A stretch of DNA of 64,000 nt, from the IMG/VR virus record IMGVR_UViG_3300037419_003078; one strand, given 5' to 3'. The notes below the pieces were generated by a model. It saw nothing but the letters and a program-made list of their open reading frames with translations. It was not told the origin of the DNA and did not search any database. Source of the DNA: an uncultured virus (IMG/VR IMGVR_UViG_3300037419_003078) (Duplodnaviria; Heunggongvirae; Uroviricota; Caudoviricetes). This document shows positions 26,410 through 42,691 of the stretch, piece after piece; the first letter of the stretch is position 1, and every line of letters begins with the position of its first letter. The translations under genes and the position numbers were made by a program.

Positions 26410-26691
26410 ATGGAAGATTACAACCACATTTATGACGCTTTAACAGAATATCAAGAAGGATTAGTTGAGGAGTGTGTTGAAGAAGTTCAATTTATTCAAG
26501 CAGGAAAGAAAACTACAATAGCACTTGTTACATTAGTCAATGGCTTTGAACTTGTTGGAACATCTGCTTGTGTAGACCCTGTTAATTTTGACACACAGAT
26601 AGGAGAGGCATATGCGTTTGCTGACGCTATCTCAAAATTAGATGAATTACTTGGTTTCTACAGACAAATGGAAATGTATCACAATAATTAA
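26410..26691 (+). CDS. Gp49/Sf6 gp66-family protein (candidate Acb4-like nucleotide sponge)
   Basis: TT....L.NGF...G.SACVDP.NFD..IG..YA......L.GF signature. Confidence 0.75.
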   Translation: MEDYNHIYDALTEYQEGLVEECVEEVQFIQAGKKTTIALVTLVNGFELVGTSACVDPVNFDTQIGEAYAFADAISKLDELLGFYRQMEMYHNN

Positions 26692-26718
26692 GGACTCCTT
26701 TTTAGGAGTTCTTTTTTT
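26691..26718 (+). terminator. intrinsic terminator
   Basis: AGGACTCCT/AGGAGTTCT hairpin + T7. Confidence 0.7.
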
Positions 26719-26822: not shown

Positions 26823-27842
26823 ATGAGAGGCTTATACGGATTAGACCTAGGAAACGGAGATATTAAGGTGGTCTCAAACATAACAAAAACACCAATAGTA
26901 TTTCCTAGCGTGATTGGAAGACTAGTTGACTATAATTCTTTAGAGTTAGGTTCTAAGGATAAAATAGGAAACTTGTCAATCATGGTAGAAGGAGAAGAAT
27001 ATGCAGTAGGAAGAATGGCTTTAAAAAATAGCACAATTAGAAACCATGATGTCACAGATGATAAGTACCTATCAGAGTCTACAAAGTTACTAGCACACAC
27101 TGCTTTATCATTAACATCTGAGTTAGCATTTTCAGTAGGTGGAGTTGTAATAGGCTTGCCGATTCATAAAATGAATATAGCAAAAAAAGTAGCACAGGAA
27201 TACAAAGGACAGAAATTCGGAGTTAAATTAGGATACTTCGGAGATTATGAAATGAAGACTAAAATAGTAGCAATAGAGCAAGCGATTGTAGTAGCACAAC
27301 CACATGGAACTTTATTTAATCTAATATTAGACGATAACGGTCAACTAGAAAATAAAGAATTGGCAGGAAGTGGAGTAGCAATATTTGATATAGGATATAA
27401 AACAAATGACGGAATAGTATTTAAAAACCTAGACCCTGTTGGAAGATTAACTATTCACAGTAAAAGTGGTATGCACGTTGCCTATGAAGAAATAAGAGCA
27501 AAGATTAGTAGGAAGTTCAATGGATTAGAAATACAAACGTATGAAGTACCTGAGATTATCCGTACTGGAACTATTAAAGGATTGAACGTAAAGAACATTG
27601 TAAACGAGTCTTTCTACAACCTAGCAGTAAACATCATAAACGAAATTAAAACTCGTTGGGAGGACGCTTGGGAGGTGGAACACATCGTCTTCACAGGTGG
27701 AGGCTCTCAACTATTAAAACCGTATCTTTCACAAGTATTCACTGACGCTATATTTAGTAGTCAAACTTCAAATGCAGAAGGATTTCTAAAATACGCTAAT
27801 AGGTTGTGGGGTGCTAAGAATGATACTGTCGTTCAACGCTAG
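26823..27842 (+). CDS. parM: ParM/StbA-like actin ATPase (type II partition)
   Basis: GLDLGNGDIK, IGLP, QP, FDIGYKTND, FTGGGS, NAEGF. Confidence 0.88.
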   Translation: MRGLYGLDLGNGDIKVVSNITKTPIVFPSVIGRLVDYNSLELGSKDKIGNLSIMVEGEEYAVGRMALKNSTIRNHDVTDDKYLSESTKLLAHTALSLTSELAFSVGGVVIGLPIHKMNIAKKVAQEYKGQKFGVKLGYFGDYEMKTKIVAIEQAIVVAQPHGTLFNLILDDNGQLENKELAGSGVAIFDIGYKTNDGIVFKNLDPVGRLTIHSKSGMHVAYEEIRAKISRKFNGLEIQTYEVPEIIRTGTIKGLNVKNIVNESFYNLAVNIINEIKTRWEDAWEVEHIVFTGGGSQLLKPYLSQVFTDAIFSSQTSNAEGFLKYANRLWGAKNDTVVQR

Positions 27843-28104
27843 AGACACCCACCCTAGAGATAAGAAAGTAATAGATTGGTATAACCAACTATATCGCTCA
27901 GAAAAAAGTAGAAAAATTATAGATATATTATATGCACACATTACTGATAGTCAGCATACAATACAATATGAAGTAGGCGAAAGCCTAAAACAACCTAGAA
28001 AGGAGGAAGTGAAATTACAGATGGTAGACATATCAACTAGCGAACCTGATAGTGAACTAGACTTAAATAGTAAGTTAGATTTACTAGGAGGCGATTTTGA
28101 ATGA
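27811..28104 (+). CDS. putative ParR-like adaptor
   Basis: small gene overlapping the parM 3' end; beta-helix-helix N-terminus, acidic C-terminal tail. Confidence 0.55.
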   Translation: MLRMILSFNARDTHPRDKKVIDWYNQLYRSEKSRKIIDILYAHITDSQHTIQYEVGESLKQPRKEEVKLQMVDISTSEPDSELDLNSKLDLLGGDFE

Positions 28105-28274
28105 TAGGTAAGCAATCTGTTCAAAGAAGATGTGACAAGTGCATTAGAGCAACCATAGTCAACACAAATGATAGGTGTCAGTTGTTCTGCACAATGAGGA
28201 AAGAGACTGTTAGCAGATTCGACCAATGTAACAGATTCTTTTATGGAAAATTTGACAAGAGGTGGATAAAATGA
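28101..28274 (+). CDS. 57-aa Cys-rich protein (not in ORF track)
   Basis: MIGKQSVQRRCDKC...C...C...C; RBS AGGAGG; overlaps both neighbours by 4 nt (ATGA). Confidence 0.55.
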   Translation: MIGKQSVQRRCDKCIRATIVNTNDRCQLFCTMRKETVSRFDQCNRFFYGKFDKRWIK

Positions 28275-28789
28275 AAGTTAACGTAGGAAGTAGAAAGACA
28301 GGATACACTACACAAAATTATTTGGAGCATACCATGAAGCACTATCTTGATAATGTAGCAGATAAATATGAAGGAGAGTTCGTAGAAGAAAACAAGTCAT
28401 TCGCAAGAGACTTCTTGAAAGGAAAGAACTTAGCAAAGTATTCAAAATTAGCAGGAGCAGTCTTACTAGGTAGCATAGCTTTATTTGGATTGATGTCAGG
28501 TGAAGTATCTGCTAGTACAGTAGTAGCTAAAGCAGTTCATATAGACACATCTCCATTAGATAGATTCTTCAAAGAGATATATTGGACTATGTTTAAAGTA
28601 TTAATGTATATAGCAACACCTGTATGGGCATGGGTAGGTTATATCCTTGCAGTAGGTGGAGCGAATAACGAAAAGAGAACACAAGCTAAGAAAGTTGGTG
28701 CAGGGCTTGTCGTAGGTACTGCAATTACAGCCTCAGCACCTTGGGCTACTCGCCAACTGTTTAGACTTTGGAGTTTAGTATTCGCATAG
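28271..28789 (+). CDS. VirB2/TrbC-like pilin precursor
   Basis: signal-like segment ending VSA, then two TM helices joined by GGANNEKRTQAKK; T4SS context. Confidence 0.6.
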   Translation: MKVNVGSRKTGYTTQNYLEHTMKHYLDNVADKYEGEFVEENKSFARDFLKGKNLAKYSKLAGAVLLGSIALFGLMSGEVSASTVVAKAVHIDTSPLDRFFKEIYWTMFKVLMYIATPVWAWVGYILAVGGANNEKRTQAKKVGAGLVVGTAITASAPWATRQLFRLWSLVFA

Positions 28790-28800
28790 GAGGAGATAGC

Positions 28801-29370
28801 ATGGAGAATATTGATTACATTAAATATGAGATTGGTAGAGCGTATTGTGAGGATAATTTCTTAGGAGAAGAAGGAAGGTATGTTGCTAATGCTTTCAAAG
28901 TTATTAACCGTTGCACTAATATATTGTTTAATAATATACCATACGAAGTAGAATTTACTAAAGAAGACCCTTATGAGAGTGCTAAAGAAATGAGAGAGAA
29001 AGTTAAAGAGACTAAGCTAATCAAGATATATACAGAATTTGACGGACACCCATTCTTAAATGAAGAACAAAACTCTAAGTTTAGAGCAGTACATGATGTA
29101 TTTGCACATCTAGTATGTGGTTGTCCATTCACATTTGAAGGAGAATATACTGCCTACCTAGAACAAAGAAAGTACTATCCTAACTGGACTTGGAATGTAT
29201 TATTTGCTGAAATCCCTGCTCAAACGTGTGCTTACTATTATAGTAACAGTTTTGATTTTAAACAGAGAGCGATTGAAGCCCCTACTACTTGGTTAAATAT
29301 GTGTAAAGGCATTGAGCGTGATTATTCTCATAACAGTATTCTTAGCCCCCTATTATATAGTGTAGTTTAA
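28801..29370 (+). CDS. conserved hypothetical protein with FRAVHDxxAH putative metal-binding motif
   Basis: N..FRAVHDVFAH...F..EGE..A...E..AQ. Confidence 0.6.
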   Translation: MENIDYIKYEIGRAYCEDNFLGEEGRYVANAFKVINRCTNILFNNIPYEVEFTKEDPYESAKEMREKVKETKLIKIYTEFDGHPFLNEEQNSKFRAVHDVFAHLVCGCPFTFEGEYTAYLEQRKYYPNWTWNVLFAEIPAQTCAYYYSNSFDFKQRAIEAPTTWLNMCKGIERDYSHNSILSPLLYSVV

Positions 29371-29433
29371 AAAATCGCCACGCCACGCCATACTGTGTAG
29401 GGTTTCTTCGCCCCCCTACTTGGAGGTGATTAT

Positions 29434-29568
29434 ATGCGAATCCCAATCAAACTTATCGAAATGATTGCCAAACAAGGCTCTAAAGAACTTGACTTAGGTA
29501 ATCCACTGACTATTGACACTGTTAACTTCATTATTGAAATCGGCAAGGAAGTACTAAAACCTTGGTAA
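29434..29568 (+). CDS. 44-aa micro-protein (not in ORF track)
   Basis: RBS GGAGGTGA; MRIPIKLIEM...KPW. Confidence 0.55.
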   Translation: MRIPIKLIEMIAKQGSKELDLGNPLTIDTVNFIIEIGKEVLKPW

Positions 29569-29834
29569 AGGAGATGATTAAAATGGTTAAAGAATTAGCA
29601 GAAGTAGTTGCGTCTGTCGGAAAGAAAGCACTATATCACACAGGAGGTATGAAGTTCCCTGTAGTAGTTGAAAACGTAAAGGTTGCTTATGGTAAAGTCT
29701 ATTATTATATCTCAAACGGAGTAGGAGAAGGTAAGTGGACTACTGAGGACTGCCTAGAAGTAATGTCTAGTGAAAAGACTAAAGCGATATTTGGAACTAT
29801 CAAAGAAGTACTAAAAGAAGTGATACTGCCATGA
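29562..29834 (+). CDS. hypothetical protein
   Basis: RBS AAGGAG; start probably 29583. Confidence 0.55.
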   Translation: MVKEMIKMVKELAEVVASVGKKALYHTGGMKFPVVVENVKVAYGKVYYYISNGVGEGKWTTEDCLEVMSSEKTKAIFGTIKEVLKEVILP

Positions 29835-29998
29835 ATCCTACTCTTACCCTGAGACTAGCAAAGTTCCTTAGTAAACGTGTAGCTAACGGAACTGAGATAA
29901 TAAAACAGTTTCCCCAATATAGAGCCGAATACATTGAGGAAACATCAGAGTACAGTAAAGTGCTGTACCAACTATTAAAGGAGATGACTTTACCTTGA
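29831..29998 (+). CDS. 55-aa micro-protein (not in ORF track)
   Basis: ATGA overlap with upstream gene. Confidence 0.5.
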   Translation: MNPTLTLRLAKFLSKRVANGTEIIKQFPQYRAEYIEETSEYSKVLYQLLKEMTLP

Positions 29999-30168
29999 AT
30001 AAGTATCTAATATTATACTGTAGTGGTCGTGCTATACATTATACGAAATTAGCTACAGAATCTTTAAAGCATGATAATGTGAAAGACTTCATAAAGTATA
30101 TGGAGAAGGCAAATGCGTTCAATGAGTTCGTTAAAAATCGAGTGGAAGGTGTGAAAGAGTATGCTTAA
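29995..30168 (+). CDS. 57-aa micro-protein (not in ORF track)
   Basis: TTG start overlapping upstream stop, RBS AAGGAG. Confidence 0.5.
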   Translation: MNKYLILYCSGRAIHYTKLATESLKHDNVKDFIKYMEKANAFNEFVKNRVEGVKEYA

Positions 30169-30274
30169 AATGATTATCATTGGTAGCTATGTGGCTCATA
30201 AAATATATTGGAAACGTGCGAATAAAGTAACGTATATACCTTGGAATAAGTTCTTTGCTAAAGGTGTGAACTAA
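30161..30274 (+). CDS. 37-aa micro-protein (not in ORF track)
   Basis: RBS AAGGTG; ends 1 nt before the virB6-like ATG. Confidence 0.4.
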   Translation: MLKMIIIGSYVAHKIYWKRANKVTYIPWNKFFAKGVN

Positions 30275-30275
30275 T

Positions 30276-31427
30276 ATGAAAATTACTGTAGGAGGGGTGG
30301 TCATACAAGACCACTCTACACCCTTCTCATTATCAAATAAGATGAATGATGTCATAGAGGAGACTAATAGGCTCATAGAGAGTAAGAATAGAGATATTAG
30401 ACGTAGTAGACCTATGAAGAAAATACTAGCCTTATTAGGCTTTGTAACAACAATAGGAGTTACTAGCGTGGCTAGTGCAGAAGTAATTAATCCCATAGAC
30501 CCAATAGATAATCCAGTTATAAAAGGTAGTGGCTTTCTAGGATTCATAACCAAAAGAATGTTCTTTAAGGATAATGATGTATCACTAATAGATAGCATAG
30601 CACTAGATGGTGTGGCGAGGCAGGATACCCTTGTTTGGAAACTAAATAACTTCTTAGAGCATACCTTACTCAATACACAGGATTTTTTCGATAACCCGGA
30701 GATACTTTCAGTTTTTAATGCAATATGGTACATCTGCATGTCATTCGTAATACTAATTATCTCTAAGAAAGGATTTGATATGGTAAAGGCTAGAGTATTA
30801 GGAACAACTACTTTAGGAGCGTCAGAGTTGATTATTAGACTATTAGCTAGTGTAGTAATGACTTTCTTATCATTAGATATTATGCAATTTGCAATAGAAG
30901 GAAGTAATCTAGTTATGAAGACGCTATTCAAAGCAATCGAAACGCACTTAATTCCATATGACGCATTAGAACAAACGAATAGCATAGGACTACTGTTTTG
31001 GTTTATAGGATTCATTGTCATGTTTGTGATACTAGGTATACAGTATTGGATTAGACAAATTACGGTAATGGTATTAGGAGTTATCACACCAATAGCTAAT
31101 ACTGCTTGGGTAGTAGATGGTGGTGCTATGCTAGGTACTCTGATAAGAGAATTTATAACCTTGATAGCCACACCTCTAGTACATGGAATAATGTTATCAC
31201 TAGGAAGTGTAGCCATATTTGAAGTAACGACCCATACAGGAAATGCTTTTGCAGATGGATTGAATAGTATTTTAATAGGATTTGCCACTATGTTCCTTAT
31301 GGTTGTAACACCTACGTTTTTAAGAAAGTTTACTACTGGCTCGTTCAACCCTGTTAAGTGGAGCGTTGGATTAGCCAAAGGCACTTATGGTAATGCAATT
31401 AAACTAGCAAGTCTAATTAAAAAATAG
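30276..31427 (+). CDS. VirB6/TrbL-like polytopic T4SS membrane protein
   Basis: 5-7 TM segments, IRQITVMVLGVITPIA motif typical of TrbL/VirB6. Confidence 0.75.
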   Translation: MKITVGGVVIQDHSTPFSLSNKMNDVIEETNRLIESKNRDIRRSRPMKKILALLGFVTTIGVTSVASAEVINPIDPIDNPVIKGSGFLGFITKRMFFKDNDVSLIDSIALDGVARQDTLVWKLNNFLEHTLLNTQDFFDNPEILSVFNAIWYICMSFVILIISKKGFDMVKARVLGTTTLGASELIIRLLASVVMTFLSLDIMQFAIEGSNLVMKTLFKAIETHLIPYDALEQTNSIGLLFWFIGFIVMFVILGIQYWIRQITVMVLGVITPIANTAWVVDGGAMLGTLIREFITLIATPLVHGIMLSLGSVAIFEVTTHTGNAFADGLNSILIGFATMFLMVVTPTFLRKFTTGSFNPVKWSVGLAKGTYGNAIKLASLIKK

Positions 31428-31439
31428 GAGGAGATTATT

Positions 31440-31562
31440 ATGAAAAAGTACACAATTAAGGTGAGAAAAGATTTTTTAAGATTCGAGCAAATCGTGGTAA
31501 TGGCGAAGGATAAAAAAATCGCAAAGTCTATCGCACAATCAATCGCAAATAGCAGAAAATAG
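31440..31562 (+). CDS. 40-aa basic micro-protein (not in ORF track)
   Basis: RBS AGGAGG. Confidence 0.5.
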   Translation: MKKYTIKVRKDFLRFEQIVVMAKDKKIAKSIAQSIANSRK

Positions 31563-31568
31563 GAGGAG

Positions 31569-32129
31569 ATGTGTATGAAGAAATTCCTTAAAGTATGTGG
31601 CTATGTAGTCCTAGGGTTGTTTGCCCTAGGAATCGCTACTAGTATTGTAGGAGGAAATGACACACCTAAACAAGAACCTAAGAAAGAAGTGGTGCAACAT
31701 GAAAAACCAAAGAAGGAAAAGAAAGATGATGGTAAGAGTCAAGCCGACAAAGAAATTGCCTATCACAGTACAATATCAAACCTCAGTATGGACATGGCAG
31801 ACATTCTATATGACTATAGTACGGTAATGGACGATGGCTCAAAAGACCCTGATTATATGTTGTCAACTGAATATCAAGATAGAGTAGATGAAGTTTGTGG
31901 CAGAATGTATGACAAGATTCAAGAAATTAAAAACGTAGATACACCGTCAAGCCTACAGCCTTTACAAAATAAATTAATAGACGCTATGAACGAATATGAA
32001 TTTGTTGCTACAGAAACACCTAAGGCAATTAAGAATGTTGACCCTCATTTAATGAGTGAAGTATTAACGCATATGGAAAATGGAACTGCAAAGGTTCAAG
32101 CAATAACAGATGAAATGAATGATTACTGA
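31569..32129 (+). CDS. membrane-anchored extracellular helical protein
   Basis: N-terminal TM, Lys/Glu linker, helical domain. Confidence 0.65.
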   Translation: MCMKKFLKVCGYVVLGLFALGIATSIVGGNDTPKQEPKKEVVQHEKPKKEKKDDGKSQADKEIAYHSTISNLSMDMADILYDYSTVMDDGSKDPDYMLSTEYQDRVDEVCGRMYDKIQEIKNVDTPSSLQPLQNKLIDAMNEYEFVATETPKAIKNVDPHLMSEVLTHMENGTAKVQAITDEMNDY

Positions 32130-32322
32130 GGAGGAAAAGTTGTGAAGAAAGTACAATATTGCGTAGGAACTAAACAAGGTTATCGTGTATATATCTTTAA
32201 TGTACAAAAGGAGGAAATTGAATGGCACTCTTACCAGTACTGGCAACCATCAAAGTTGCCCAACTTGTCTTAATCGGTAGCTTGGCACTCAGAAAGAGTA
32301 GAAAGAAGGAGGATATACAAGT

Positions 32323-32664
32323 ATGGAAACTTACACAGTTCCTAGAGGAATCAAGATTAGAGAAACTGTCGCATACGGTTTAAATGGTAAGCAGATAATC
32401 TATTTAGCGTTTGGAATTGGAGGAGCACTTGGTATATGTGCTCTCCCTCTCCCATTCGATTTAAAGATAGCAGGAAGTATCTTGTCATCTATTGCAAGTC
32501 TATTCTTATCCCTAGCAAAGCGTCATGGTCAAGAACTAGATAAATATGTATGGAATACAGTTCAGTATTCTGTTAGAAACAAGGAGTTGAAAAATGATGT
32601 TGAAGAAAAACCGGTTCACACTATTAAAATCAACTACGGTACAAGACAACCTAGTACAGCATAA
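32323..32664 (+). CDS. PrgI/VirB3-like T4SS protein
   Basis: VPRGIK.RE...GLNGKQIIY, two TM, G..LDKY; directly upstream of virB4. Confidence 0.75.
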   Translation: METYTVPRGIKIRETVAYGLNGKQIIYLAFGIGGALGICALPLPFDLKIAGSILSSIASLFLSLAKRHGQELDKYVWNTVQYSVRNKELKNDVEEKPVHTIKINYGTRQPSTA

Positions 32665-34408
32665 AGGTAATTGGTTGCTTGTTATGAAGATACAGAGCAT
32701 TGACATTGAAAATAAAAGTGATATAGATAAGGTATCTACGCTATCCGTATTTCAAGATGTATTAAGGTCTTTCCATAGTCAGGCTCAGATTATTTTTCGT
32801 AAACTCCCACTCGATTTTTCATCTCAAACATCACGCTTAGAGTCTAATATTCTATCGTCAAACAATGAAAAGGTGAAAGAGTATGGCGAAAGTTACGCAG
32901 AATACTTAAAGGAGGTGTCAGCTAACAAGTTAGATAAAGTCAATTATTTGATTATAAAAACAGACAGGAGATGTAGCTATGAAGAAGGAAAGTCATACCT
33001 TGAAGGAGTTTTTAACACAGTCAAACAAACCCTCTCAAACCTTAACATCTCAGTTGTTCAAGTCAAAGGTGAGGAACTTCAAAGCCTTTACCATTTACCT
33101 TCCTTTATCAAGGAAGAAGTGGATTACTTTGTTTATGGTGAGGAGGTAAAACGGACATATGTTGTAATGGACTATCCTAGAACAATTTACCCTAATTGGT
33201 TAAAGCCTATCCTAGGTTATCATTATCCTATTGAATTGACACAACACTTACACCCTATTGGAAGGAGTAAAGTTATTAAGCAATTAGAACTACAGATGGC
33301 TAAATTACAATCTACGATGGACGTACAAGAGAACAATGGAGATGTAGTGTCTAGTGAATTAAGAGTTAGATTAAGCGACACTGAGGATTTACTTCGTAAG
33401 CTAGCTAGTGGTGAATGTAATATGATGGAGACATCTTTCTACATTACTCTTTCTGCCCCCAATCACGAAATATTGAACTATCGTTCTGCTGAACTAGAAA
33501 GTTACATTCGTCAGTGTGGATTAACTTATCGAACGTGTCGGAGAGAGGTTCATAGAGGAATCAAATCAGTACTTCCATTATGTGATGACCATATGCTTGA
33601 ATCATATGCCTTTGATACTCGGTCATTATCAACGTTACTACCTTTTACAGTACAAGACTTTATAGATAAAGACGGAATATTCTATGGACTAAGTAGTGAC
33701 ATGACAGAAATGATATGTGTAGACCTTTGGAATCTCCCCAACCCTAATAAAATTATTCTAGGAAAATCAGGCTTTGGAAAGTCAATGCTATCTAAAACAG
33801 AAACAGCAAGGCACATTATCAATGGTACTCAGGCTATAATAATAGACCATAACGGAGAATGGAAAGAGTTCTGCAACATTCTAGGAGGTGAGTATATAAC
33901 AGATTGTGATTCTACTATCAAATGGAATAGTCATCTATTAGTCTTTGGAGGTGAAGACAAAGTTAAATCTCTTAAAACAGTATGGAATCAAATACAAGCA
34001 GAAGACATTAAGCAACGAGTTCTAGTAATAGAGGAATTTCATAATATACTAAGAGAGGATAAATCCTTATTATTACAAGTAGTTAAAGAGATTCGCAAGA
34101 GTGGTACTGCCCCAACATTTATCACTCAAAATGTAAGAGACTTCTTAATGACCGAGGAAGGACAAATGATATTCGACAACTGCTCTATCAAAGTATTTTT
34201 ACGACAAGGAGAAAATGATTTAGAGGAAGTGGAAAAACTATTTGACCTATCAAGAAATGAGAAAGTCTACCTTAAAACTTGTCCAATAGGATACGGATAT
34301 TTATATACAGACCTATATAAAACAAAATTTAAAGTAGATTATTCGACTAGAGAGGAGGAAATTCTTTCAACTAATCCGATGGATAAGATAAGGAGGATAA
34401 AAATATGA
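32594..34408 (+). CDS. virB4: VirB4-like T4SS ATPase
   Basis: LLPF, NPNKIILGKSGFGKS (Walker A), IIDHNGEW, VIEEFH (Walker B), RKSG..TQ. Confidence 0.85.
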   Translation: MMLKKNRFTLLKSTTVQDNLVQHKGNWLLVMKIQSIDIENKSDIDKVSTLSVFQDVLRSFHSQAQIIFRKLPLDFSSQTSRLESNILSSNNEKVKEYGESYAEYLKEVSANKLDKVNYLIIKTDRRCSYEEGKSYLEGVFNTVKQTLSNLNISVVQVKGEELQSLYHLPSFIKEEVDYFVYGEEVKRTYVVMDYPRTIYPNWLKPILGYHYPIELTQHLHPIGRSKVIKQLELQMAKLQSTMDVQENNGDVVSSELRVRLSDTEDLLRKLASGECNMMETSFYITLSAPNHEILNYRSAELESYIRQCGLTYRTCRREVHRGIKSVLPLCDDHMLESYAFDTRSLSTLLPFTVQDFIDKDGIFYGLSSDMTEMICVDLWNLPNPNKIILGKSGFGKSMLSKTETARHIINGTQAIIIDHNGEWKEFCNILGGEYITDCDSTIKWNSHLLVFGGEDKVKSLKTVWNQIQAEDIKQRVLVIEEFHNILREDKSLLLQVVKEIRKSGTAPTFITQNVRDFLMTEEGQMIFDNCSIKVFLRQGENDLEEVEKLFDLSRNEKVYLKTCPIGYGYLYTDLYKTKFKVDYSTREEEILSTNPMDKIRRIKI

Positions 34409-34644
34409 AGACATACCTTTTATGGTTTAACGAAGGCAAAAGTTGTGCAGTAATGGAAGTAACAAAAATAGTATCAGACGCAGAAAGACTAGCACCACAA
34501 CTACCAAGAGCATTAATAATTCCTGCCCTAATGAACTACCTTAATGCTGATGAAATCATTACTGCTGATACAGAGGAACAGATGTTGGATATGTTTGAAA
34601 ACGCTACTGTTGTTAACATTAGTAAGAAGGAGGATTTAAATTGA
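34405..34644 (+). CDS. hypothetical protein
   Basis: coupled between virB4 and virD4. Confidence 0.55.
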   Translation: MKTYLLWFNEGKSCAVMEVTKIVSDAERLAPQLPRALIIPALMNYLNADEIITADTEEQMLDMFENATVVNISKKEDLN

Positions 34645-37049
34645 GTAACTCTATACTTGAATTAACAAACGTATTAGATAACAGTACTTTAGAGGACTCG
34701 GAGAGACTTCTCCGTTCCTTCTATCGTACCATTGAGCCACACAAGAAACGTAACTGGAAGAATCCCACAAGAATATCGTGGGAGGTGTTTGCAGAGAAAG
34801 ATAAGATTAGCTTTTATGTAGTAGTCCCTAGCAACATGGAGAGATTGATTAAGAGTCGAATAAAAGACGCTTATCCAAGTTCTGAAGTGCGTAAGGTAGA
34901 GGAAGACCATACAAATAAATTTGAAAAACCATTTACTGCTCAGATGGACTTAAACAAACATCATATGTTTTCTACAAAAATGGACACAGGAGATACACCA
35001 TTAAATTCAATATTAAATTCTATGAGTAGACTAGACGAGAATGAAAGAATGTTATTACAGATTACAATGCTACCTATCAACAATACATGGCAAGGTAAGG
35101 CATACGCAAAGTATCGAGATATGTTATTTAATGGAAAGAAACCGAATAAGCCTAAGAAGTTTAATGTTGGTAGTGGAATATTATACTCTATCGCAGGATT
35201 TTTCAAAGTGATAGAATTTTTCTACAATTTAGGTGGAAATGGAGAAAACAAGAACACACCTATCGAGAGAGAAGAATTAAAAGGCACTCAGAAGAAGATA
35301 GCCCTACCTGCCTTTAATACAGATATACGTTTAGTAGCAGAGTCACCTGACCCTAATTCAAGTAGCACTAGACTATCAGAACTAGCAAATAGTTTTATAG
35401 AATTGGATTATGATAATGAATGGAGACGAGTAAAGACTAACTCAGAGAGAACAATGAAGTTTGTTAGAGAGAGGAAAGTAGATAGATGGACTAATAACGT
35501 AGTAACAACAAAAGAGTTATGCCCTATCGTAAGACTAACTAATCAAGCTATTAATGTGCCTGAATTGAAGAAAGCACTAAAGACACTTCCTATCCCACAA
35601 GGACTAGACAAAGGACTATTCTTTGCTCATGGACTATATAACTCATTAATGCACGAAACATTTATGAATCCACAAAACGTAGAGGACTTCGTTCACCCAT
35701 TTATGTTAACAGGGGGAATGGGAGGAGGAAAGACAACGATGATTATCAATATGATGTTAGCTAGAGCATTAGCAGGAAATAGCGTCATACTGATAGATAC
35801 CCAAGGTGATATGTCGTTAGACTTCCTATCTCAGTTACCCAAATCAGAGCATGATAGAGTGGTGTGGTTAAATTTCGGAGATTTATATAATCCACCATCA
35901 TTAGATTTAGTTGAGTTTGTGTCATTAGGAAAGGATAAGAATAGCAGTAGAGTAGATGAAATGTTCGTTAAAGATATAGCTAAAAACGAACTAATATCCA
36001 TATTCAAGAAAATGTGGGGGACGAATTTTGGTCCTCAAACAGAATATATAACACGAAACAACATTACTGCTACCATTGAAACTGGTGGAACTATCATGGA
36101 AATGTTCCGTATGCTAGTAGATGACCAATATCGTGATGAAATAACAATGCAAATTAGAAATAAAGCACCTTTCTGTTGGAGTTTTTGGCATACGTTCCAA
36201 ACAAATTACAATATAGGTCAGAAAATGAGAATGGTAATGCCTAGTATTAACAAGATAGGTAGCTTTGTAGAGTCTCCAATCATAAGAAATATCCTTTGTC
36301 AAGGTACACAGAATTATAATTTTAGAGACATGATGGACAGTGGAAAGATAGTAGTAGTGACAATACCTAAAGGTATTTTGATAGGTGCATGGCAATTAAT
36401 AGCTAGCTTAGTAATCAGCAAGATATGGTTAGCGTCTCTATCAAGAGTAAATCAACCTATCCACGAAAGAAAGCCATGTTTCCTAGCAAGTGACGAGGCA
36501 GACGATATTATAAATGATAATTTCCCTATCATGCTGTCCCAATCTAGGAAGTTCAGATTAGGAATTGTGCTAGGATTTCAGTATTTAGACCAAATAAAAT
36601 CTAATAATAAACGAGTATATGACGCATTAATTGGTAACAAGCCTAATATAGTCGCTTTAAAAATCGGCAAGAAAGATTTAGATAACACATATGCAGAGAT
36701 GTGGAAAGACTTCTATAGGAAAGAGGATTTAAGTGCTTTCCCTAACTTACATGGTGTAGCACAAATATCTGTTAACGGTCAACCTACAAATCCATTTACA
36801 ATTAAAATACCATTTAACTATCATACAAAAGACGATTCACCTAGAGATAATATTGCAGGAGACTTAGAAATTATAGCAGAAAATAGTCGAAAATTATATT
36901 CTAAACCACTTCATGAAGTTGAGGCAATTGTTGATAAGCGTTACGAGGAAGTATTATCTAATTTGGCACTGTCAGATGACATAGAGGATATTGATTATGA
37001 GACACAACTAGATGAAGAACTAATTAAGAACCTAAAAGATATAATCTAA
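34641..37049 (+). CDS. virD4: VirD4/TraG-like coupling ATPase
   Basis: GGMGGGKTT, IDTQGD, DEAD, SRKFRLGIVLGFQYLDQ, ALIGN. Confidence 0.85.
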   Translation: MSNSILELTNVLDNSTLEDSERLLRSFYRTIEPHKKRNWKNPTRISWEVFAEKDKISFYVVVPSNMERLIKSRIKDAYPSSEVRKVEEDHTNKFEKPFTAQMDLNKHHMFSTKMDTGDTPLNSILNSMSRLDENERMLLQITMLPINNTWQGKAYAKYRDMLFNGKKPNKPKKFNVGSGILYSIAGFFKVIEFFYNLGGNGENKNTPIEREELKGTQKKIALPAFNTDIRLVAESPDPNSSSTRLSELANSFIELDYDNEWRRVKTNSERTMKFVRERKVDRWTNNVVTTKELCPIVRLTNQAINVPELKKALKTLPIPQGLDKGLFFAHGLYNSLMHETFMNPQNVEDFVHPFMLTGGMGGGKTTMIINMMLARALAGNSVILIDTQGDMSLDFLSQLPKSEHDRVVWLNFGDLYNPPSLDLVEFVSLGKDKNSSRVDEMFVKDIAKNELISIFKKMWGTNFGPQTEYITRNNITATIETGGTIMEMFRMLVDDQYRDEITMQIRNKAPFCWSFWHTFQTNYNIGQKMRMVMPSINKIGSFVESPIIRNILCQGTQNYNFRDMMDSGKIVVVTIPKGILIGAWQLIASLVISKIWLASLSRVNQPIHERKPCFLASDEADDIINDNFPIMLSQSRKFRLGIVLGFQYLDQIKSNNKRVYDALIGNKPNIVALKIGKKDLDNTYAEMWKDFYRKEDLSAFPNLHGVAQISVNGQPTNPFTIKIPFNYHTKDDSPRDNIAGDLEIIAENSRKLYSKPLHEVEAIVDKRYEEVLSNLALSDDIEDIDYETQLDEELIKNLKDII

Positions 37050-37141
37050 TTTTATAGTATTTGTAATATTTTTGAATTATATGTATATAATATTGTAAAG
37101 ATGGAAATAAAGGTAGTATACGGAAAGGAGGTGGTACTCAA

Positions 37142-37375
37142 ATGAAGTTTTTAATCCCACTAGTATTTGTTCTAGTATCCTTGACTGGTTGCGACTACGG
37201 ACTTACACAAGAGGCGTGTATGAAGGAAGGAGCAGTACTATACAAAGGAGACTGTGTTGACTTTATGAAAGACGTACCTGACCGAGATAAAGACAAGGTG
37301 GTTCAAGATGTAGCAGATGAATTAAACATTACATTTGACGAGGCACTAGGTAGAGTATTTGATTTAGAATATTGA
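37142..37375 (+). CDS. small lipoprotein
   Basis: lipobox LTGC. Confidence 0.7.
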   Translation: MKFLIPLVFVLVSLTGCDYGLTQEACMKEGAVLYKGDCVDFMKDVPDRDKDKVVQDVADELNITFDEALGRVFDLEY

Positions 37376-37379
37376 ACGC

Positions 37380-37406
37380 AAAAAAGGTAGGAGATTAGTC
37401 CTACCT
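37380..37406 (-). terminator. intrinsic terminator at the convergence of the two arms
   Basis: AGGTAGGA/TCCTACCT hairpin with T-tract on the - strand. Confidence 0.7.
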
Positions 37407-37414
37407 GTGGGAAA

Positions 37415-37654
37415 TTAAAGGTCATTCTCTCCACATATTTCACAGCCACCATATGCGTAGTATTCTTTCCAAGCAGAAGTTCCATCAGTGAATTTATGCC
37501 TATTAAGTCTACATAGCCTTTGTATCTCTCTATATGCCTCACTTTTACTTCTCCTTACCTCTCTTGCTCTGTTGCTTAGTTCGGTTAATTCCTTATTGTA
37601 CACTGCGAGTTCCTCAGTTAATGATTTAATATTAGACGGTATTACTTTACTCAT
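37415..37654 (-). CDS. hypothetical protein (coiled coil + Cys/His)
   Basis: RBS GGAGGT. Confidence 0.6.
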   Translation of the reverse strand: MSKVIPSNIKSLTEELAVYNKELTELSNRAREVRRSKSEAYREIQRLCRLNRHKFTDGTSAWKEYYAYGGCEICGENDL

Positions 37655-37659
37655 ATTAC

Positions 37660-38268
37660 CTACCTCCTAATGTGGTCTCCTGTTTTAAAGTAATTTGAGT
37701 TATCTCCACCATTCTCACACCATTCCATGATTTTTTCTACATCTAAGAAACGCTTACGAACATCTGACCACATGATAGGCTTGTAGTCAACCTTCTCCAT
37801 TGACACACATTGCCATAATGCAGGAGATAATCCAGTATCAGCACTATGAGTATGAGCATGAACATTACCAATGAAAGCAGGGTTATAATGCTTTAACCAA
37901 GCAAGATTCTGAGGTGTCATAGGGTGATGTGTTAACATCATTCCACTAATCATATACATTTTAGTTGGCATAAAACCTAGTCGTCTGAACTTGGTATCAC
38001 TATCTCTCCTGTCGTGATTTCCACGAACTAAGATATTACGCTTACCGTCTAAATTTAGACGCTTAGTAATATAATTTGTTCTCTCTGAGTTACAGAAGAA
38101 CATGTCTCCTAACCAAAACACAATGTCACCATCATCAACTGTATTATTATAGTTTTCAATAATAACATTATCCATATGTTCTACGTCAATGAATGGTCGC
38201 ACAGGCTCATGTTTTAAAATATTTTTATGGGAGAAGTGGGGGTCTCCCCACAGCCAAATTTTACTCAT
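37660..38268 (-). CDS. calcineurin-like metallophosphoesterase
   Basis: DPHFSH, LGD, GNHD, HAHTH. Confidence 0.88.
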   Translation of the reverse strand: MSKIWLWGDPHFSHKNILKHEPVRPFIDVEHMDNVIIENYNNTVDDGDIVFWLGDMFFCNSERTNYITKRLNLDGKRNILVRGNHDRRDSDTKFRRLGFMPTKMYMISGMMLTHHPMTPQNLAWLKHYNPAFIGNVHAHTHSADTGLSPALWQCVSMEKVDYKPIMWSDVRKRFLDVEKIMEWCENGGDNSNYFKTGDHIRR

Positions 38269-38280
38269 ACTATCACTTCC

Positions 38281-38544
38281 TTATTCAAACTTCTTCCAAT
38301 CTCTAACTAGTTCTTTTGCATATTCAGTATGTTGGTCTATTATGTCACGAACTTTCAAATCTTTACTGTATCTTCCGAATGAAATTCTCTCTTTTTTGTT
38401 ATAAGAGATAAAGGGAAGTTTTTTCTTTTCGATATGATTGACTTCAACTAACCAAGAGTTTGCACCTGTTATTGTTAACTGTATATAGTTGGTGTCGTCT
38501 ATAAAAAATTTTTCGCTATACGTCAACATAGAATCACTCCTCAT
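38281..38544 (-). CDS. hypothetical protein
   Basis: ORF in - strand array. Confidence 0.5.
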   Translation of the reverse strand: MRSDSMLTYSEKFFIDDTNYIQLTITGANSWLVEVNHIEKKKLPFISYNKKERISFGRYSKDLKVRDIIDQHTEYAKELVRDWKKFE

Positions 38545-38851
38545 CTTTGTTTTTAGCTTTATAAATCATTTCAGTAATTTCGGGTAATGAAAACATGTAT
38601 TCTTTAAATTCCATTAGTTCCAACTCCAATCTATATTAAAATCTTTGCTTTCCTTTTCTTTTCTGCTTTTCCATTCTAATAGTTCTTCTTCTGTCCAGTA
38701 GTGGTCTCTTACTTCACAAATACTTTCAATGCAGTCCTTGTAGGCTCTCCTGTTATATCTTATGTAGAATAGCCTTCCTGCTCTAAATTCATTCTTTGCC
38801 ATTACTCTGAATGTTTGAGTTTGATTGGCGAAACGGTTAAAGAAAGTGACT

Positions 38852-39190
38852 TCATATCGTTTTAAATCCATCTTGCCACAACCTTTTCCATACGACTTCT
38901 GTCTGTTGTTCTTTTTTAACTTCAAATAATGTAGTGTCGTTATACTCATGGTCATATGAATAGTGCTTATGTCCGTATTTAGTTAAGAATACTTTTACAC
39001 CGAAATAGAACTCTGCAAAGTAGCTAACTCCATCTCCTATAGTTGTCTTGTAAATAGAAGTCCAATACTTACCGTCACTATCTTCCGTTGATTTTATATT
39101 CGTTACATGAGAATACTTGACTCCATTAAATTCAAAGTTACTGTTCTCACACACAAAGTCAGACATGATTTCAAAAGGTAATTTTGTCAT
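38852..39190 (-). CDS. hypothetical protein
   Basis: RBS GGAGAG. Confidence 0.55.
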   Translation of the reverse strand: MTKLPFEIMSDFVCENSNFEFNGVKYSHVTNIKSTEDSDGKYWTSIYKTTIGDGVSYFAEFYFGVKVFLTKYGHKHYSYDHEYNDTTLFEVKKEQQTEVVWKRLWQDGFKTI

Positions 39191-39456
39191 ATTGTCACTC
39201 TCCTAAAATAATCGTTTATTTAGAAATTTTTTTAACTTTTGTCTGTTTTCAAAGAACTCAGCTATTTTAATAACTGATAATCCAACTGCTGTAGCAAACA
39301 AAGCAAATATTGTAGTGGGTAAAAATACAATGCTTAGAATCAAATGTTTGACTTTAAATCCTTTTTCAAATATTTCTTCATGATTAAATAGTACAAATAA
39401 AGAAAACAAAAAGCTAGCTATTGTATACATGGCAAATAGAAATGCTAGAAAGTCAC

Positions 39457-39675
39457 TCATTCTCCATCTCCTCCTGCTGACCATATAAAGTGTCCTATGA
39501 TATGTGAAAGAACTAATATTGCTAGCACTACTCCTGCTACTATTAATGCCCACATATGGGTCATTATGAAGGATAAGAGTCCAAAAACTACGACAATTGC
39601 CAATAACACAATGCAACCTATAAAAATCTTTTCAGAAATATCATTGAAAAAACCACTAAATAGTCTTTTTAACAT
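39457..39675 (-). CDS. small membrane protein, paralog of 39688-39912
   Basis: KR.F.GF...K.F.G + two TM + GH. Confidence 0.6.
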   Translation of the reverse strand: MLKRLFSGFFNDISEKIFIGCIVLLAIVVVFGLLSFIMTHMWALIVAGVVLAILVLSHIIGHFIWSAGGDGE

Positions 39676-39687
39676 ATTATCACTCTC

Positions 39688-39912
39688 CTAAATAAGTTTT
39701 CTTATAATTGCGTGTCCTACTAAATACCCTAACACAAGAACAACTAGGACAACTAAGAAGGCTATAAGATATGTAGCAACAAGATATGCCATTAAGCCCA
39801 ACAATAAAAGTGCAAACAATCCTACAAATAATTTATCTAGAAATTTTGAAAGAAAACCATTAAAAAATCTTTTCATAATACCACTCTCCTTTGAATATAC
39901 TAGATTAGTCAT
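39688..39912 (-). CDS. small membrane protein, paralog of 39457-39675
   Basis: same pattern as neighbour. Confidence 0.6.
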   Translation of the reverse strand: MTNLVYSKESGIMKRFFNGFLSKFLDKLFVGLFALLLLGLMAYLVATYLIAFLVVLVVLVLGYLVGHAIIRKLI

Positions 39913-40068
39913 AACTAATTCACCTAAAACGTATCAGTCATTATTGAATACTCGTGAAATACCATAAGAAATTAATAGTTAAAGCACCTACAATGTATCC
40001 AATAAGCAAGCATATTAGGGCTATGTTTTTGGGATTCATTATTACCACCACCTTTATCTTATGTTTAT

Positions 40069-40097
40069 ATTATAACCTTAGAATAAATGAAAGTCAA
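40069..40097 (-). promoter_or_regulatory. sigmaA-type promoter whose -35 overlaps the relaxase RBS
   Basis: TTGACT-N17-TATAAT on - strand. Confidence 0.75.
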
Positions 40098-40109
40098 GGA
40101 GGAATTTAA

Positions 40110-41090
40110 ATGTTTTTACCTGAAAAGAGAACAATTACCAAATTTGAAAGAGAAAATAAAAGAATTACAGATGAAGATATTGATAAAATTATGCGTTGGA
40201 TAACGGATAGAGATATTGAAATATTGATGTTATTATTAAAGAATCCCTTTCTTACAGTAGAACAAATTGAAATGCTAGTGTTTAGCAACTTAACCACTTC
40301 TATGTGGCGTAATAAGGCTAATAAGCGTTTAAGAAGGCTATACCATAGTCAATGTATAGACCGATTCTTTCCACCTACTGAGAAAGACGCAGGAAGTTCA
40401 CAGGCACATTACATTCTTGATTATGCAGGAGCAAAAGTATTAGCTAAGTATAAAGGTCACACAGGAAAGTTTAAGTTTCGTAAAAGAGATTATATCCCAC
40501 AAAATTATAAACACACTTTAAAAATACTTGACTTCTACTCTATTCTTCATGTTCTAAATCGTCAACTAGGATACACTAGTGAAGGAACTGTAGGAGAGAT
40601 AGTTACATGGAAAACAGAGCAAAGAAAAAAGTTTCACTATACTGCCAACAACAGAGTCAATAAAGGTGAGATAATACCTGACGCTTTCTGCATATATAAA
40701 CATACTGCACAAGGTCATTTAAAATTCTTCTTCCTAGAATGTGACAATGCTACTGAGCCTATGGAAACTCTTAAAGGTAAAATATTAAACTATAGACGTT
40801 ATTTCGCAAGTGGCGAATGGAGACAAGAAAAATGGGCAAAAGTCCTAGGTGGATTTCCTGCTATCCTCTTTGTATTCCATAATCAAGAACAAGTAAATGA
40901 GATGGTAGCTTACAGTCGAAGATTAGACTCTAATTTGAAGTTCCTGTTCACCACTTACGACAATCTATATGAAGACGAACGAAAGCTATATGTAAACTCC
41001 TTGGGGAAGAAAAGATATGTTCCCCAAAGAAGGAAGGTCAATATATTATCTGAAATATGGTCAAGTAAAGATGGGCTAGTATCTCTCTAG
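40110..41090 (+). CDS. Replic_Relax (MOBC-like) relaxase
   Basis: N-terminal wHTH (TDRD..IL..L...FLT.EQI...RLRRL), H, IPDA, FFLECDNATE...KI..Y..Y. Confidence 0.85.
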   Translation: MFLPEKRTITKFERENKRITDEDIDKIMRWITDRDIEILMLLLKNPFLTVEQIEMLVFSNLTTSMWRNKANKRLRRLYHSQCIDRFFPPTEKDAGSSQAHYILDYAGAKVLAKYKGHTGKFKFRKRDYIPQNYKHTLKILDFYSILHVLNRQLGYTSEGTVGEIVTWKTEQRKKFHYTANNRVNKGEIIPDAFCIYKHTAQGHLKFFFLECDNATEPMETLKGKILNYRRYFASGEWRQEKWAKVLGGFPAILFVFHNQEQVNEMVAYSRRLDSNLKFLFTTYDNLYEDERKLYVNSLGKKRYVPQRRKVNILSEIWSSKDGLVSL

Positions 41091-41570
41091 CCCTCGTATG
41101 CTATTTCTTGTAATTTGTTGTGCCACTCGCAAGCAGTCTCGCCTATATCCTCTAAATAATCTAACTGCTTATTAATACTATTAGCATTTTCAATCATACT
41201 TAATAACTCTTTTATCCTGTTAATATAATGCTCCATCGTATCACTCCGATTCTATCATTACTTCTCTAACTTCTAAGTCATAAGAATCTACCTGTCTAGA
41301 ATCATCAAATTCTCCACATTCAACTTTCTTCTCTGCTTCCTCAGGACTATCTGCCTCAACATATACTACATTTAATGTTACTTCCTCAAACAATACCTTG
41401 TATTTTGTCATTGTTCTCTTCCTCCTAAAAATGTTCTTATTCTAAGGCTTTGTGTTACAAATTGTTCAAAATTTAACTTAAACTTTTCTCCGAGTTTATA
41501 ATGTTCCATATATTTCTGATACCTTTGATATTGCTCATAGAAATGGTCTAGTAATTCATCTGTCAGTACT

Positions 41571-42049: not shown

Positions 42050-42487
42050 TTATCGCAACTCCTCTCGAACTTTCATTAGAAGTATTCCTAATCTATTCTT
42101 TCCAGTTCCATTTCTACCTATACCCCAATAATAGTCATAGGGAGAATCTTCTATTAGTTCTTTGTCACCAGTTTCCATTAATTTTTTCCACATATGAAAA
42201 TTATGGAATTTAGCTTTTAAGGCTCTGTACATTACGTCTTCCTTTACCTCCTCCCAATCTTTGCGAAGTGGTAAATCTCTCCTCTTGCCTTCTCGTGCAG
42301 TCTCAGAAGGGTAGTTAAGAGTTCTAATGTATTCTTCATACTCAGTTCCTTCAAACTTCATAGATTGAAAATAATGCTCTACAGTTTTATATGTCTTGCC
42401 ATCTATTTCAATGGGCGAAAAATAAAAATTACTTAGAAAACCGAAGGGTTTATCAGCCCCCCAAAACTTTATAGCCACATCTGTCAC
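42050..42487 (-). CDS. NADAR (YbiA-like) ADP-ribosylhydrolase
   Basis: FLSNFY, TVEHYFQ..KF, DWE.VK..VM...AKF, EDSPYD.YWG...G.N.LG..LM.VR. Confidence 0.92.
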   Translation of the reverse strand: MTDVAIKFWGADKPFGFLSNFYFSPIEIDGKTYKTVEHYFQSMKFEGTEYEEYIRTLNYPSETAREGKRRDLPLRKDWEEVKEDVMYRALKAKFHNFHMWKKLMETGDKELIEDSPYDYYWGIGRNGTGKNRLGILLMKVREELR

Positions 42488-42680: not shown

Positions 42681-42691
42681 TCTATCATCTC

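Follow-up and report, generated by a model that had tools for sequence, protein, structure and literature searches.

The stretch of DNA analyzed here, a window of 64,000 nucleotides from the uncultured virus record IMGVR_UViG_3300037419_003078 in IMG/VR, carries on its plus strand a run of genes resembling components of type IV secretion systems (T4SSs), which extends from position 26,823 to 37,375 in the list of open reading frames (ORFs) and their Pfam matches, with a relaxase-like gene 3 kb beyond. The original prediction, made from the letters alone, had described a conjugation-like T4SS plus relaxase on a phage-like replicon, and the core of that description stood: the co-oriented run with the described ORFs is present, and it encodes a T4SS-like set (VirB2-, VirB3-, VirB4-, and VirB6-like proteins) together with a coupling ATPase and a homolog of MOBC-type relaxases on what appears to be a phage genome. 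Judging from family and profile comparisons, we are highly confident in the identity of the module parts, which are given below with their coordinates in the window.

26690..26713, plus strand: terminator-like hairpin, a 10-bp stem followed by a T run, closing the upstream unit.
26823..27842, plus strand: ParM/Alp7A-like actin, 339 aa, first gene of the cassette (Pfam ALP_N, 5.2e-22).
27811..28104, plus strand: candidate filament-to-DNA adaptor, 97 aa, in a ParR/AlpA-like position directly after the actin gene.
28262..28789, plus strand: VirB2/TrbC-like (T4SS_pilin-type) membrane protein, 175 aa (family-level PF18895/PF04956 matches).
28768..30168, plus strand: variable accessory ORFs of 200 aa (phrog_3170, 3.9e-13), 90, 55, and 57 aa.
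30276..31427, plus strand: VirB6/TrbL-like polytopic membrane protein, 383 aa, six predicted transmembrane (TM) segments (TrbL_4, 1e-11).
31569..32129, plus strand: variable, membrane-anchored helical protein, 186 aa, with an N-terminal hydrophobic segment.
32323..32664, plus strand: PrgI/VirB3-like small membrane protein, 113 aa, two TM segments (Pfam PrgI, 5.9e-8).
32594..34408, plus strand: VirB4-family ATPase, 604 aa from the first start (574 aa in the database form).
34405..34644, plus strand: non-conserved ORF of 79 aa between both ATPases.
34641..37049, plus strand: coupling-protein-like ATPase, 802 aa, with an N-terminal soluble domain, a TrwB/VirD4-type NTPase domain, and an acidic C-terminal tail.
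37142..37375, plus strand: predicted lipoprotein, 77 aa, with a signal-like N-terminus ending in LTGC; final gene of the plus-strand run.
37385..37406, minus strand: terminator-like hairpin after the plus-strand run.
37660..39912, minus strand: variable leftward block (metallophosphatase, small and membrane ORFs) between the ATPase and relaxase genes.
40057..40076, no strand assigned: block upstream of the relaxase gene, conserved in 3/3 aligned relatives (alignment).
40110..41090, plus strand: Replic_Relax (MOBC-type) relaxase-like protein with a winged-helix N-terminus and a PD-(D/E)XK nuclease core (Pfam, 2.1e-30).

The module is predicted to be a new transcription unit starting after the 26690-26713 hairpin. 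Within it, the VirB4 identity of the 604-aa protein is firm as far as sequence comparison reaches. The GKSGFGKS and IEEFH motifs on which the claim of a VirB4 ATPase had been based are present in its translation, the Walker A and B columns were invariant in 17 homologs, and the profile built from these 17 sequences matched the solved Thermoanaerobacter VirB4 (4AG5) at 4.5e-30 and nothing else. In Pfam, the protein matched P-loop_TraG (1.3e-12) and, under the cut-off, CagE_TrbE_VirB (8e-4), and its best NCBIfam model was the Firmicutes conjugative family conju_CD1110 (5.9e-62); gp155 of phage G aligned with it at 2e-31. A quick maximum-likelihood tree recovered the VirB4 sequences of the clade as monophyletic (15 rows, SH-like approximate likelihood-ratio support of 100) on a stem of length 1.48, and the phage G branch in the same tree was long and of unresolved placement.

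The claim of a VirD4-like ATPase was upheld for the NTPase domain of the 802-aa protein, whose translation contains GGMGGGKT and DEAD and whose family profile (23 sequences) had TrwB as its nearest match (1.4e-10), followed by DotL (1.6e-6), ahead of HerA-type helicases. The single sequence matched TrwB_AAD_bind at 2.8e-5 (23.6 bits, cut-off 20.5) and phrog_5156 at 1e-108, both Walker motifs were invariant in the 23 sequences, and homologs were found in phage G (gp156, 5e-56), SPO1 (gp27.4, 4e-39), and 0305phi8-36 (ORF201, 4e-15). When the coupling-ATPase and VirB4 family profiles were compared with hhalign, only the C-terminal ATPase part aligned (probability 77%, E 2e-5). Full-length plasmid relatives of the coupling ATPase are rare, as 0/88 records cover 80% of it, and the best ones reside on large Clostridium plasmids and one Priestia megaplasmid. 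Plasmids of the Clostridium sporogenes/botulinum group (150-275 kb) harbor a PrgI-VirB4-C40 peptidase locus and, elsewhere, a 77%-coverage homolog of the phage-type ATPase that includes the N-terminal domain. On Priestia megaterium pFDU301A (1.08 Mb, essentially unannotated), VirB4-like and ATPase homologs match at 672-704 kb in several separate pieces, which may be pseudogenes or sequencing errors.

The predicted Replic_Relax relaxase 3 kb downstream was recovered by Pfam at 40110-41090 with 106.7 bits against a cut-off of 25.3, and by phrog_9381 (3.3e-47), a family that PHROGs names 'replication initiation by nicking'. Across six phage homologs, P190-D191, E210, D212, and K224 are invariant and form a PD...ExD...K core; Replic_Relax has been assigned to the PD-(D/E)XK fold (PMC3424549), and CONJscan equates PF13814 (Replic_Relax) with MobC relaxases, according to PMC5357655. 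The closest named homologs were SPO1 gp27.3 (3e-28), phage G gp146 (6e-20), and 0305phi8-36 ORF200 (5e-13). By tblastn, the relaxase had homologs in 37 phage records, all of them Bacillus phages, and no match at 1e-3 among 72,556 plasmid records. The ATPase and relaxase genes are adjacent in SPO1, 0305phi8-36, Thrax5, and one relative of the window (G003, where the gap is ~40 nt and the relaxase gene directly follows the ATPase gene), and a VirD4 coupling protein beside a PF13814/MobC relaxase is described as a known mobilization architecture in PMC5357655. The conserved block at 40057-40076 was considered as an origin of transfer (oriT) and was not demonstrated to be one; it coincides with an 11-of-12 promoter match on the minus strand (40097-40069) and is most simply read as the putative -10 element of a leftward sigma-70-type promoter. 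A short hydrophobic ORF of ~32 codons, too small for the ORF list and seen by eye, runs leftward from 40037, divergent from the relaxase gene, and is preceded by the ribosome-site-like run GGTGGTGG and by the same strong promoter match.

Concerning the channel-type proteins, the VirB6-like and PrgI/VirB3-like assignments were upheld by Pfam matches above the respective cut-offs (TrbL_4 and PrgI, as listed). The VirB6-like protein also matched gp153 of phage G (3.3e-13), which itself matches TrbL_4 at 1.8e-11, and the PrgI-like protein matched phage G gp154 (1.6e-9), while its homolog in the 146-kb relative G002 matches PrgI at 1.8e-10. The VirB2-like pilin came first among the genes named in the original prediction; its existence is supported at the family level, and its position is 28262-28789 rather than the start of the region. 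This 175-aa protein has hydrophobic segments at residues 64-82 and 113-131 and gave no Pfam match when searched alone, but in its family (23 homologs found) 13/24 members match PF18895 T4SS_pilin and 9/24 match PF04956 TrbC, Atlas leads point toward T4SS_pilin clusters, and its positional equivalent in phage G, gp150, matches T4SS_pilin at 3.7e-6.

The gene actually located at the start of the region (26823-27842), which had been left unnamed, encodes the ParM/Alp7A-like actin. Besides ALP_N, it matched MreB-like_C (9.6e-15) and Alp7A_like_C (2.3e-5) in Pfam, ParM in NCBIfam (6.2e-32, under the cut-off), and phrog_691, 'partition protein' (1e-56), and its homologs include SPO1 gp27.9 (8e-27) and 0305phi8-36 ORF207 (4e-17). 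The following 97-aa ORF is conserved in the relatives G001 (70%) and G002 (31%) and has a weak match to ORF206 of 0305phi8-36, which occupies the equivalent position (1.8e-4 in a 19-sequence set); its candidate role as an adaptor is suggested solely by its position.

The remaining ORFs of the region are less constant. The accessory ORFs at 28768-30168 appear to lie outside the conserved core: those of 200, 55, and 57 aa match G001, the 90-aa ORF has no G001 match, and none of them matches the compact module of G002. The 79-aa ORF at 34405-34644 had no match in G001 or G002 and no Pfam family match, and six small ORFs yielded nothing usable from Pfam at permissive E-values. The 186-aa protein (31569-32129) was considered as a VirB8 candidate and rejected, given a helical Atlas model and no counterpart in the G002 module; its nearest Atlas clusters are helical lipoprotein-like proteins, and it is 32% identical in G001. 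A 417-aa ORF on the minus strand (30131-31384) was also rejected as a gene, since its apparent conservation in G001 arises because it mirrors the real VirB6-like gene.

The nature of the replicon was addressed through related contigs. G001, an IMG/VR contig of 158,299 bp (CheckV 89%), has a VirB4 69% identical to that of the window, and 69/109 window ORFs match it, 68/69 of them in the same order, at 80-144 kb of G001. The original prediction had asked for virion genes beyond the window, and these were found in 4/4 related contigs: G001 carries a terminase large subunit (TerL), portal, scaffold, major head and tail proteins, and an endolysin, and the same TerL and head protein occur in 3/3 further relatives (contigs of 126-158 kb). 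The element family is a tailed phage, which for the window itself we infer from its collinearity with G001. The VirB4, ATPase, and relaxase proteins of the window are each recorded on contigs of up to 166,133 bp. In G001, at 40-50 kb (L007:26-9985), an ORF of 3,319 aa has a C-terminal lysin domain and is presumably the tape measure protein, which would imply a very long tail. A tyrosine recombinase lies beside the terminase gene of G001. Among 35 ORFs at the two ends of this contig, the matched families were all of phage type, none of them clearly host, and comprised thymidine kinase, DHFR, ThyA, ClpP, Apyc1, and amidoligases. The IMG/VR label 'provirus' is attached to 3/4 relatives, and no host flanks are visible in the G001 ends. 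Within the window, the predicted flanking genes for DnaG, DnaE, NrdIEF, ERF, and a sigma factor (7340-7978) were confirmed, whereas RusA was not, since no window ORF gave such a match in Pfam or PHROGs.

The best explanation for these data is a phage of ~160 kb infecting Bacillaceae-type hosts, and a partial record named for a Psychrobacillus metagenome-assembled genome, which carries close homologs, hints at the host. Other searches returned few relatives: window positions 30,000-41,100 and 1-25,000 had no megablast match among phages or plasmids, no relative was recovered from IMG/VR with a single protein as query, a metagenome scan with the VirB4 profile gave two weak partial loci only, and two pattern scans, run over 185,579 species genomes with the profiles of VirB4 and the coupling ATPase, brought up no isolate genome that encodes a relative. 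The reading of the element as a phage-plasmid gained no support, as the species-genome scans found no such relative and the ParM-like gene does not discriminate; the latter is no evidence of plasmid life because lytic SPO1 has a ParM-like gene in the same cassette. In the published accounts cited here, phage-plasmids and conjugative plasmids are treated as separate classes (PMC12282955; PMC7969092, a 2021 screen for phage-plasmids in which CONJscan was applied to 2,383 phages).

The module also appears to be a stable part of this lineage. GC content across the region is flat (0.32-0.37), and neither an integrase (Pfam) nor flanking repeats resembling attachment (att) sites were seen at the module borders. 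The module proteins of G001 are 56-82% identical to those of the window, against a median of 62% over 59 shared ORFs, and the actin (82%) and the ATPase (80%) fall in the top quarter of the shared identities. In G002, whose module proteins are 31-52% identical, the eight core genes are kept in unchanged order and in a more compact form (actin, adaptor, pilin-like, VirB6-like, PrgI-like, VirB4, and ATPase, with the relaxase 2.1 kb beyond), and the module occupies the equivalent genomic place in G001, G004, and G002. The best explanation is a vertically inherited accessory of a tailed phage. This agrees with the checks proposed for a separate integrative and conjugative element (ICE), in which composition breaks and att sites were sought with negative results. 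A recently inserted ICE or conjugative plasmid segment, or a join created by misassembly, is close to refuted: an ancestral transfer from a conjugative plasmid is suggested in the Tyrovirus paper (PMC9703825), and the family closest to the VirB4 is the CD1110 type of Firmicutes, but the flat composition, the clean borders, the shared genomic place, the long private stem of the VirB4 clade, the lack of megablast matches to plasmids or phages, and the tblastn counts for the relaxase (none of 72,556 plasmid records vs. 37 phage records) all stand against it.

What such a module might do can be outlined as follows. The actin-like filament and its adaptor would bring replicated phage DNA to the membrane, the Replic_Relax nuclease would bind and nick that DNA, and the coupling ATPase would feed it into a channel of VirB4-, VirB3-, VirB6-, and VirB2-like proteins. 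Through this channel the DNA would leave the cytoplasm of the infected cell with no virion involved, and its most likely destination would be an adjoining cell, reached much as in conjugation. For the first step there is a precedent in the Corynebacterium prophage CGP3, where a phage actin and its adaptor are reported to tie phage DNA to filaments (PMC4446434). Confidence in this scheme differs by part. That the module translocates DNA of some kind across a membrane seems somewhat more probable than the contrary; that the export is specifically into a neighboring cell is doubtful. A conjugation-like, virion-free translocation module for phage DNA is, as a whole, the best explanation we can offer, and a tentative one. 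In its most far-reaching form, in which a tailed-phage lineage (this clade and phage G) owns a working minimal T4SS that moves its genome without a virion, into a neighbor or a forespore, with the actin filament as a delivery track, the proposal is speculative and on the unlikely side; if it were true, the SPO1-type core (actin, coupling ATPase, and relaxase) would be the same device with a simpler or borrowed host channel.

Several observations weigh against this explanation. The original prediction had noted that virion genes, a VirB1-like hydrolase, and VirB8/TcpC were not visible in the window, and the Pfam and PHROGs scans agree: among the window ORFs scanned, inside and outside the module, none encodes a virion protein, a peptidoglycan hydrolase, or a protein like VirB8/TcpC. 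A full conjugation machine is not borne out in the module, in which both kinds of gene are missing, and a hydrolase is present in 4/4 cellular comparators. The virion genes of the window's own genome are deduced because the relatives are collinear. The VirB4 scored 210 bits with conju_CD1110, under the curated 325-bit cut-off, and the TM scan found no N-terminal TM or membrane domain in the 802-aa coupling ATPase. No oriT was found among the repeats and conserved non-coding blocks near the relaxase gene. Phages with a strictly lytic lifestyle carry the core cassette, and by analogy the module is probably dispensable for ordinary lytic growth; in 0305phi8-36, deletion of orf200-207 is reported to leave plaque size and yield unchanged (PMC3357382). 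Lastly, the ATPase homologs occur almost wholly in phages of endospore-formers, which a general role in conjugation does not predict. Such parts are read by default as serving transfer into a neighboring cell; the lack of a hydrolase and of VirB8 weakens that reading, as does the occurrence of the core cassette in lytic phages.

The host range of the ATPase family bears on the destination of the DNA. A tblastn search with SPO1 gp27.4 returned 146 phage records, and for 143 of them the name points to an endospore-forming genus (Bacillus 133, Geobacillus 5, Lysinibacillus 2, Alicyclobacillus 1, Brevibacillus 1, and Clostridium 1), and the remaining ones are two deep-sea thermophilic phages, which we take to have a Geobacillus host, and one from Microcystis. 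Staphylococcus, Listeria, and Enterococcus have phages related to SPO1, and none of their phages was among the 146 records. The phages with gp27.4 homologs span myo- and siphoviruses of 39-498 kb. Delivery to the forespore, in which the module would position phage DNA in the developing spore or pump it there so that the phage survives inside, is an unlikely alternative: the actin filament would push genomes to the poles, and the relaxase, coupling ATPase, and VirB4 channel would cross the septal or engulfing membranes, where there is no thick wall to breach. The missing wall hydrolase fits this scheme, as do the 143/146 records from endospore-forming genera, the restriction of all 37 relaxase-homolog records to Bacillus phages, and the presence of the cassette in lytic phages, where conjugation is hard to rationalize. 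The host pattern is nonetheless a correlation only, which could stem from a common gene pool or from the limited sensitivity of the search, and no regulatory signal linked to sporulation came up, although no search was aimed at one; moreover, the host already has SpoIIIE to move septum-trapped DNA, and no T4SS is known to operate between mother cell and forespore.

Genome maintenance alone, without DNA export, seems rather unlikely as an account of the whole module. Under it, the ParM-like protein and its adaptor, a 'replication-relaxation' nuclease, and an FtsK-like ATPase would constitute a partition and replication or multimer-handling unit serving an extrachromosomal prophage, or would organize replicating DNA at the membrane, with the T4SS-like proteins as anchors. 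Annotators of the Tyroviruses, Kirov, and Novomoskovsk read their cassettes in this way (PMC9703825, PMC10454425, PMC9658697), the PHROGs name of the relaxase family points in the same direction, CGP3 AlpAC is reported to be needed for efficient phage replication (PMC4446434), and a tyrosine recombinase lies beside the terminase gene in G001 and beside the cassette in Thrax5. Such a role, however, leaves the conserved VirB4, VirB3, VirB6, and VirB2 homologs with their intact ATPase motifs unexplained, and it sits poorly with the lytic lifestyle of SPO1 and 0305phi8-36, with the unaltered plaques and yield of the 0305phi8-36 deletion described in PMC3357382, and with the species-genome scans, which found no relative encoded in an isolate genome.

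Since the T4SS family includes protein-secreting and DNA-release or DNA-uptake systems, the module might instead secrete proteins or effectors, take up or release DNA, or exclude competitors through an ATPase-nuclease pair that attacks incoming DNA. An ATPase with a PD-(D/E)XK nuclease is a common defense layout, and both ATPases have weak PADLOC matches to mad8 (3.7e-10 and 1.3e-5). Functions of this kind are nevertheless very improbable here: 0/10 module proteins fall in a PADLOC defense family beyond generic ATPase-domain or similarly weak matches, the pairing of a relaxase with a coupling protein is specific to DNA transfer systems, and no candidate effector was recognized.

Beyond the module, the window and G001 encode further features of phage-host interplay and metabolism. 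On the minus strand of the window (42050-48040), three genes close to one another encode a NADAR domain protein (8e-37), a NAMPT-family protein of 591 aa (NAPRTase, 2.4e-32), and a PRPP-synthetase-like protein of 293 aa, and the NADAR/NAMPT pairing presumably resembles phage NAD+ reconstitution pathways that counter NAD-depleting defense. A row of two GT4 glycosyltransferases, an FkbM-type methyltransferase, and a sugar nucleotidyltransferase on the plus strand (19357-23245; 70-76% in G001) is predicted to be a sugar-modification cassette. Other window genes encode a full RuvB-like ATPase (55006-56052, minus strand; RuvB_N 4e-50), a patatin-like phospholipase (16436-17311, plus strand; 1e-32), and a WDGH-domain protein (1924-2256, plus strand; 7e-44). 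G001 has an anti-Pycsar Apyc1 homolog (L005:15618-16388, minus strand; 7.9e-39) and, at L012:3537-12669 (minus strand), three amidoligase_2 proteins clustered with a class-II glutamine amidotransferase, to which the amidotransferase at 57228-58391 of the window is related.

Phages and conjugative elements are usually treated as two separate routes of gene transfer. Conserved, motif-intact mating-channel genes with a relaxase, retained in tailed phages even where the identity of the module proteins is no higher than 31-52%, suggest a second, particle-free route by which a phage genome might move or persist. To what was known, the present analysis adds that a form bearing VirB4 and VirB3 exists as a clade trait, that the cultured phage G has the full set, beyond what its publications list, and that the ATPase family is nearly confined to phages of spore-forming hosts. 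This near-confinement yields two testable hypotheses, one of transfer between cells and one of entry into the spore; should both fail, large Bacillus phages would still share a widespread accessory system that lacks an explanation.

Comparison with described systems places the module among several partial counterparts. The plasmid pXO16 of Bacillus thuringiensis sv. israelensis, likened here by description, is large, has a 'phage-like nature', and transfers single-stranded DNA through a distant T4SS-like apparatus (PMC6199540); it is, however, a proven conjugative plasmid for which, in that account, plaques were never seen, whereas the present family has virion genes in the relatives and a putative transfer function. 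CGP3 AlpAC resembles the start of the module in combining a phage actin-like protein and an adaptor acting on phage DNA (PMC4446434) and differs in being without T4SS parts. In the class 8 integrative and mobilizable elements (IMEs) of streptococci, a coupling-protein gene likewise adjoins a Replic_Relax/MobC relaxase gene (Coluzzi et al. 2017, PMC5357655), but these IMEs are described as integrating via a serine recombinase and borrowing the channel of a helper, and the phage relaxase subfamily has no plasmid match by tblastn.

Cellular systems of the CD1112 (VirB6)/PrgI/CD1110 (VirB4) type share with the module both the protein families and the gene order VirB6-PrgI-VirB4, and a Bacillus mycoides plasmid also has a pilin gene upstream of VirB4. 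Cellular conjugative T4SSs of monoderm bacteria (MPF FA/FATA-like) have, in addition, VirB8-like proteins and adhesins, neither of which is present in the phage module. The four cellular loci compared differ from the phage module in bearing a hydrolase gene one to three genes past VirB4 (a CD1108-family protein, a DD-metalloendopeptidase, a lytic transglycosylase/C40 protein, and a C40 protein, respectively), whereas in the phage module the TM-less ATPase occupies the slot after VirB4 and an actin-like gene is present. Among phages, gp11-18 of the Tyroviruses are described as having ParM, a ribbon-helix-helix protein, a T4SS protein, and Replic_Relax in a row; the cassette of the Tyrovirus Thrax5 differs from the module in having an M23 peptidase and in being without VirB4.

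The closest described precedent makes the core cassette less novel than had been thought. A 'DNA translocation operon' was described in the lytic Bacillus phages 0305phi8-36 and SPO1 by Pathria et al. (2012, PMC3357382), who listed as its parts a relaxase with kinship to MobC of CloDF13, a VirD4-like ATPase without TM segments, and proteins resembling VirB6 and MreB, stated that relaxases of other families are absent from phages, and already proposed particle-free cell-to-cell spread. The report has seen little follow-up since. By direct homology, both phages share with the window the actin-like protein, the TM-less VirD4-like ATPase, and the MobC-like relaxase; the ATPase has 802 aa in 0305phi8-36 as well, in which pilin-like and VirB6-like proteins also lie upstream of it, and a ParM-like gene heads the ATPase-relaxase cassette in SPO1-type myophages, 0305phi8-36, and Tyroviruses alike. 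The window differs from SPO1 and 0305phi8-36 in adding a true VirB4 and a PrgI/VirB3-like protein, and in the leftward block of ~2.3 kb that separates the relaxase from the ATPase gene. The VirB4 profile had no match in the whole records of SPO1, 0305phi8-36, and Thrax5 (0/3), and of the four complete phage records searched only phage G gave one (1/4; 3.4e-55). In a literature survey that was not exhaustive, no description of the VirB4-bearing form as such was found; the phage G paper names gp155-156 alone, as TraC- and TraD-like proteins whose function in phages is 'entirely unknown', and reports them absent from the virion proteome (PMC12484599). Phage G, the sole cultured phage with a near full-length VirB4 match, differs in its low identity to the window (23-27%), in being a 498-kb myovirus, and in having its actin-like gene ~295 kb from the module, and it nevertheless encodes the same series, namely gp146 (Replic_Relax, 4e-25), gp150 (T4SS_pilin), gp153 (TrbL_4), gp154 (PrgI-like), gp155 (VirB4), and gp156 (ATPase). 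On this comparison of genes and their order, the module of the window is the Bacillus-phage 'DNA translocation operon' in enlarged form.

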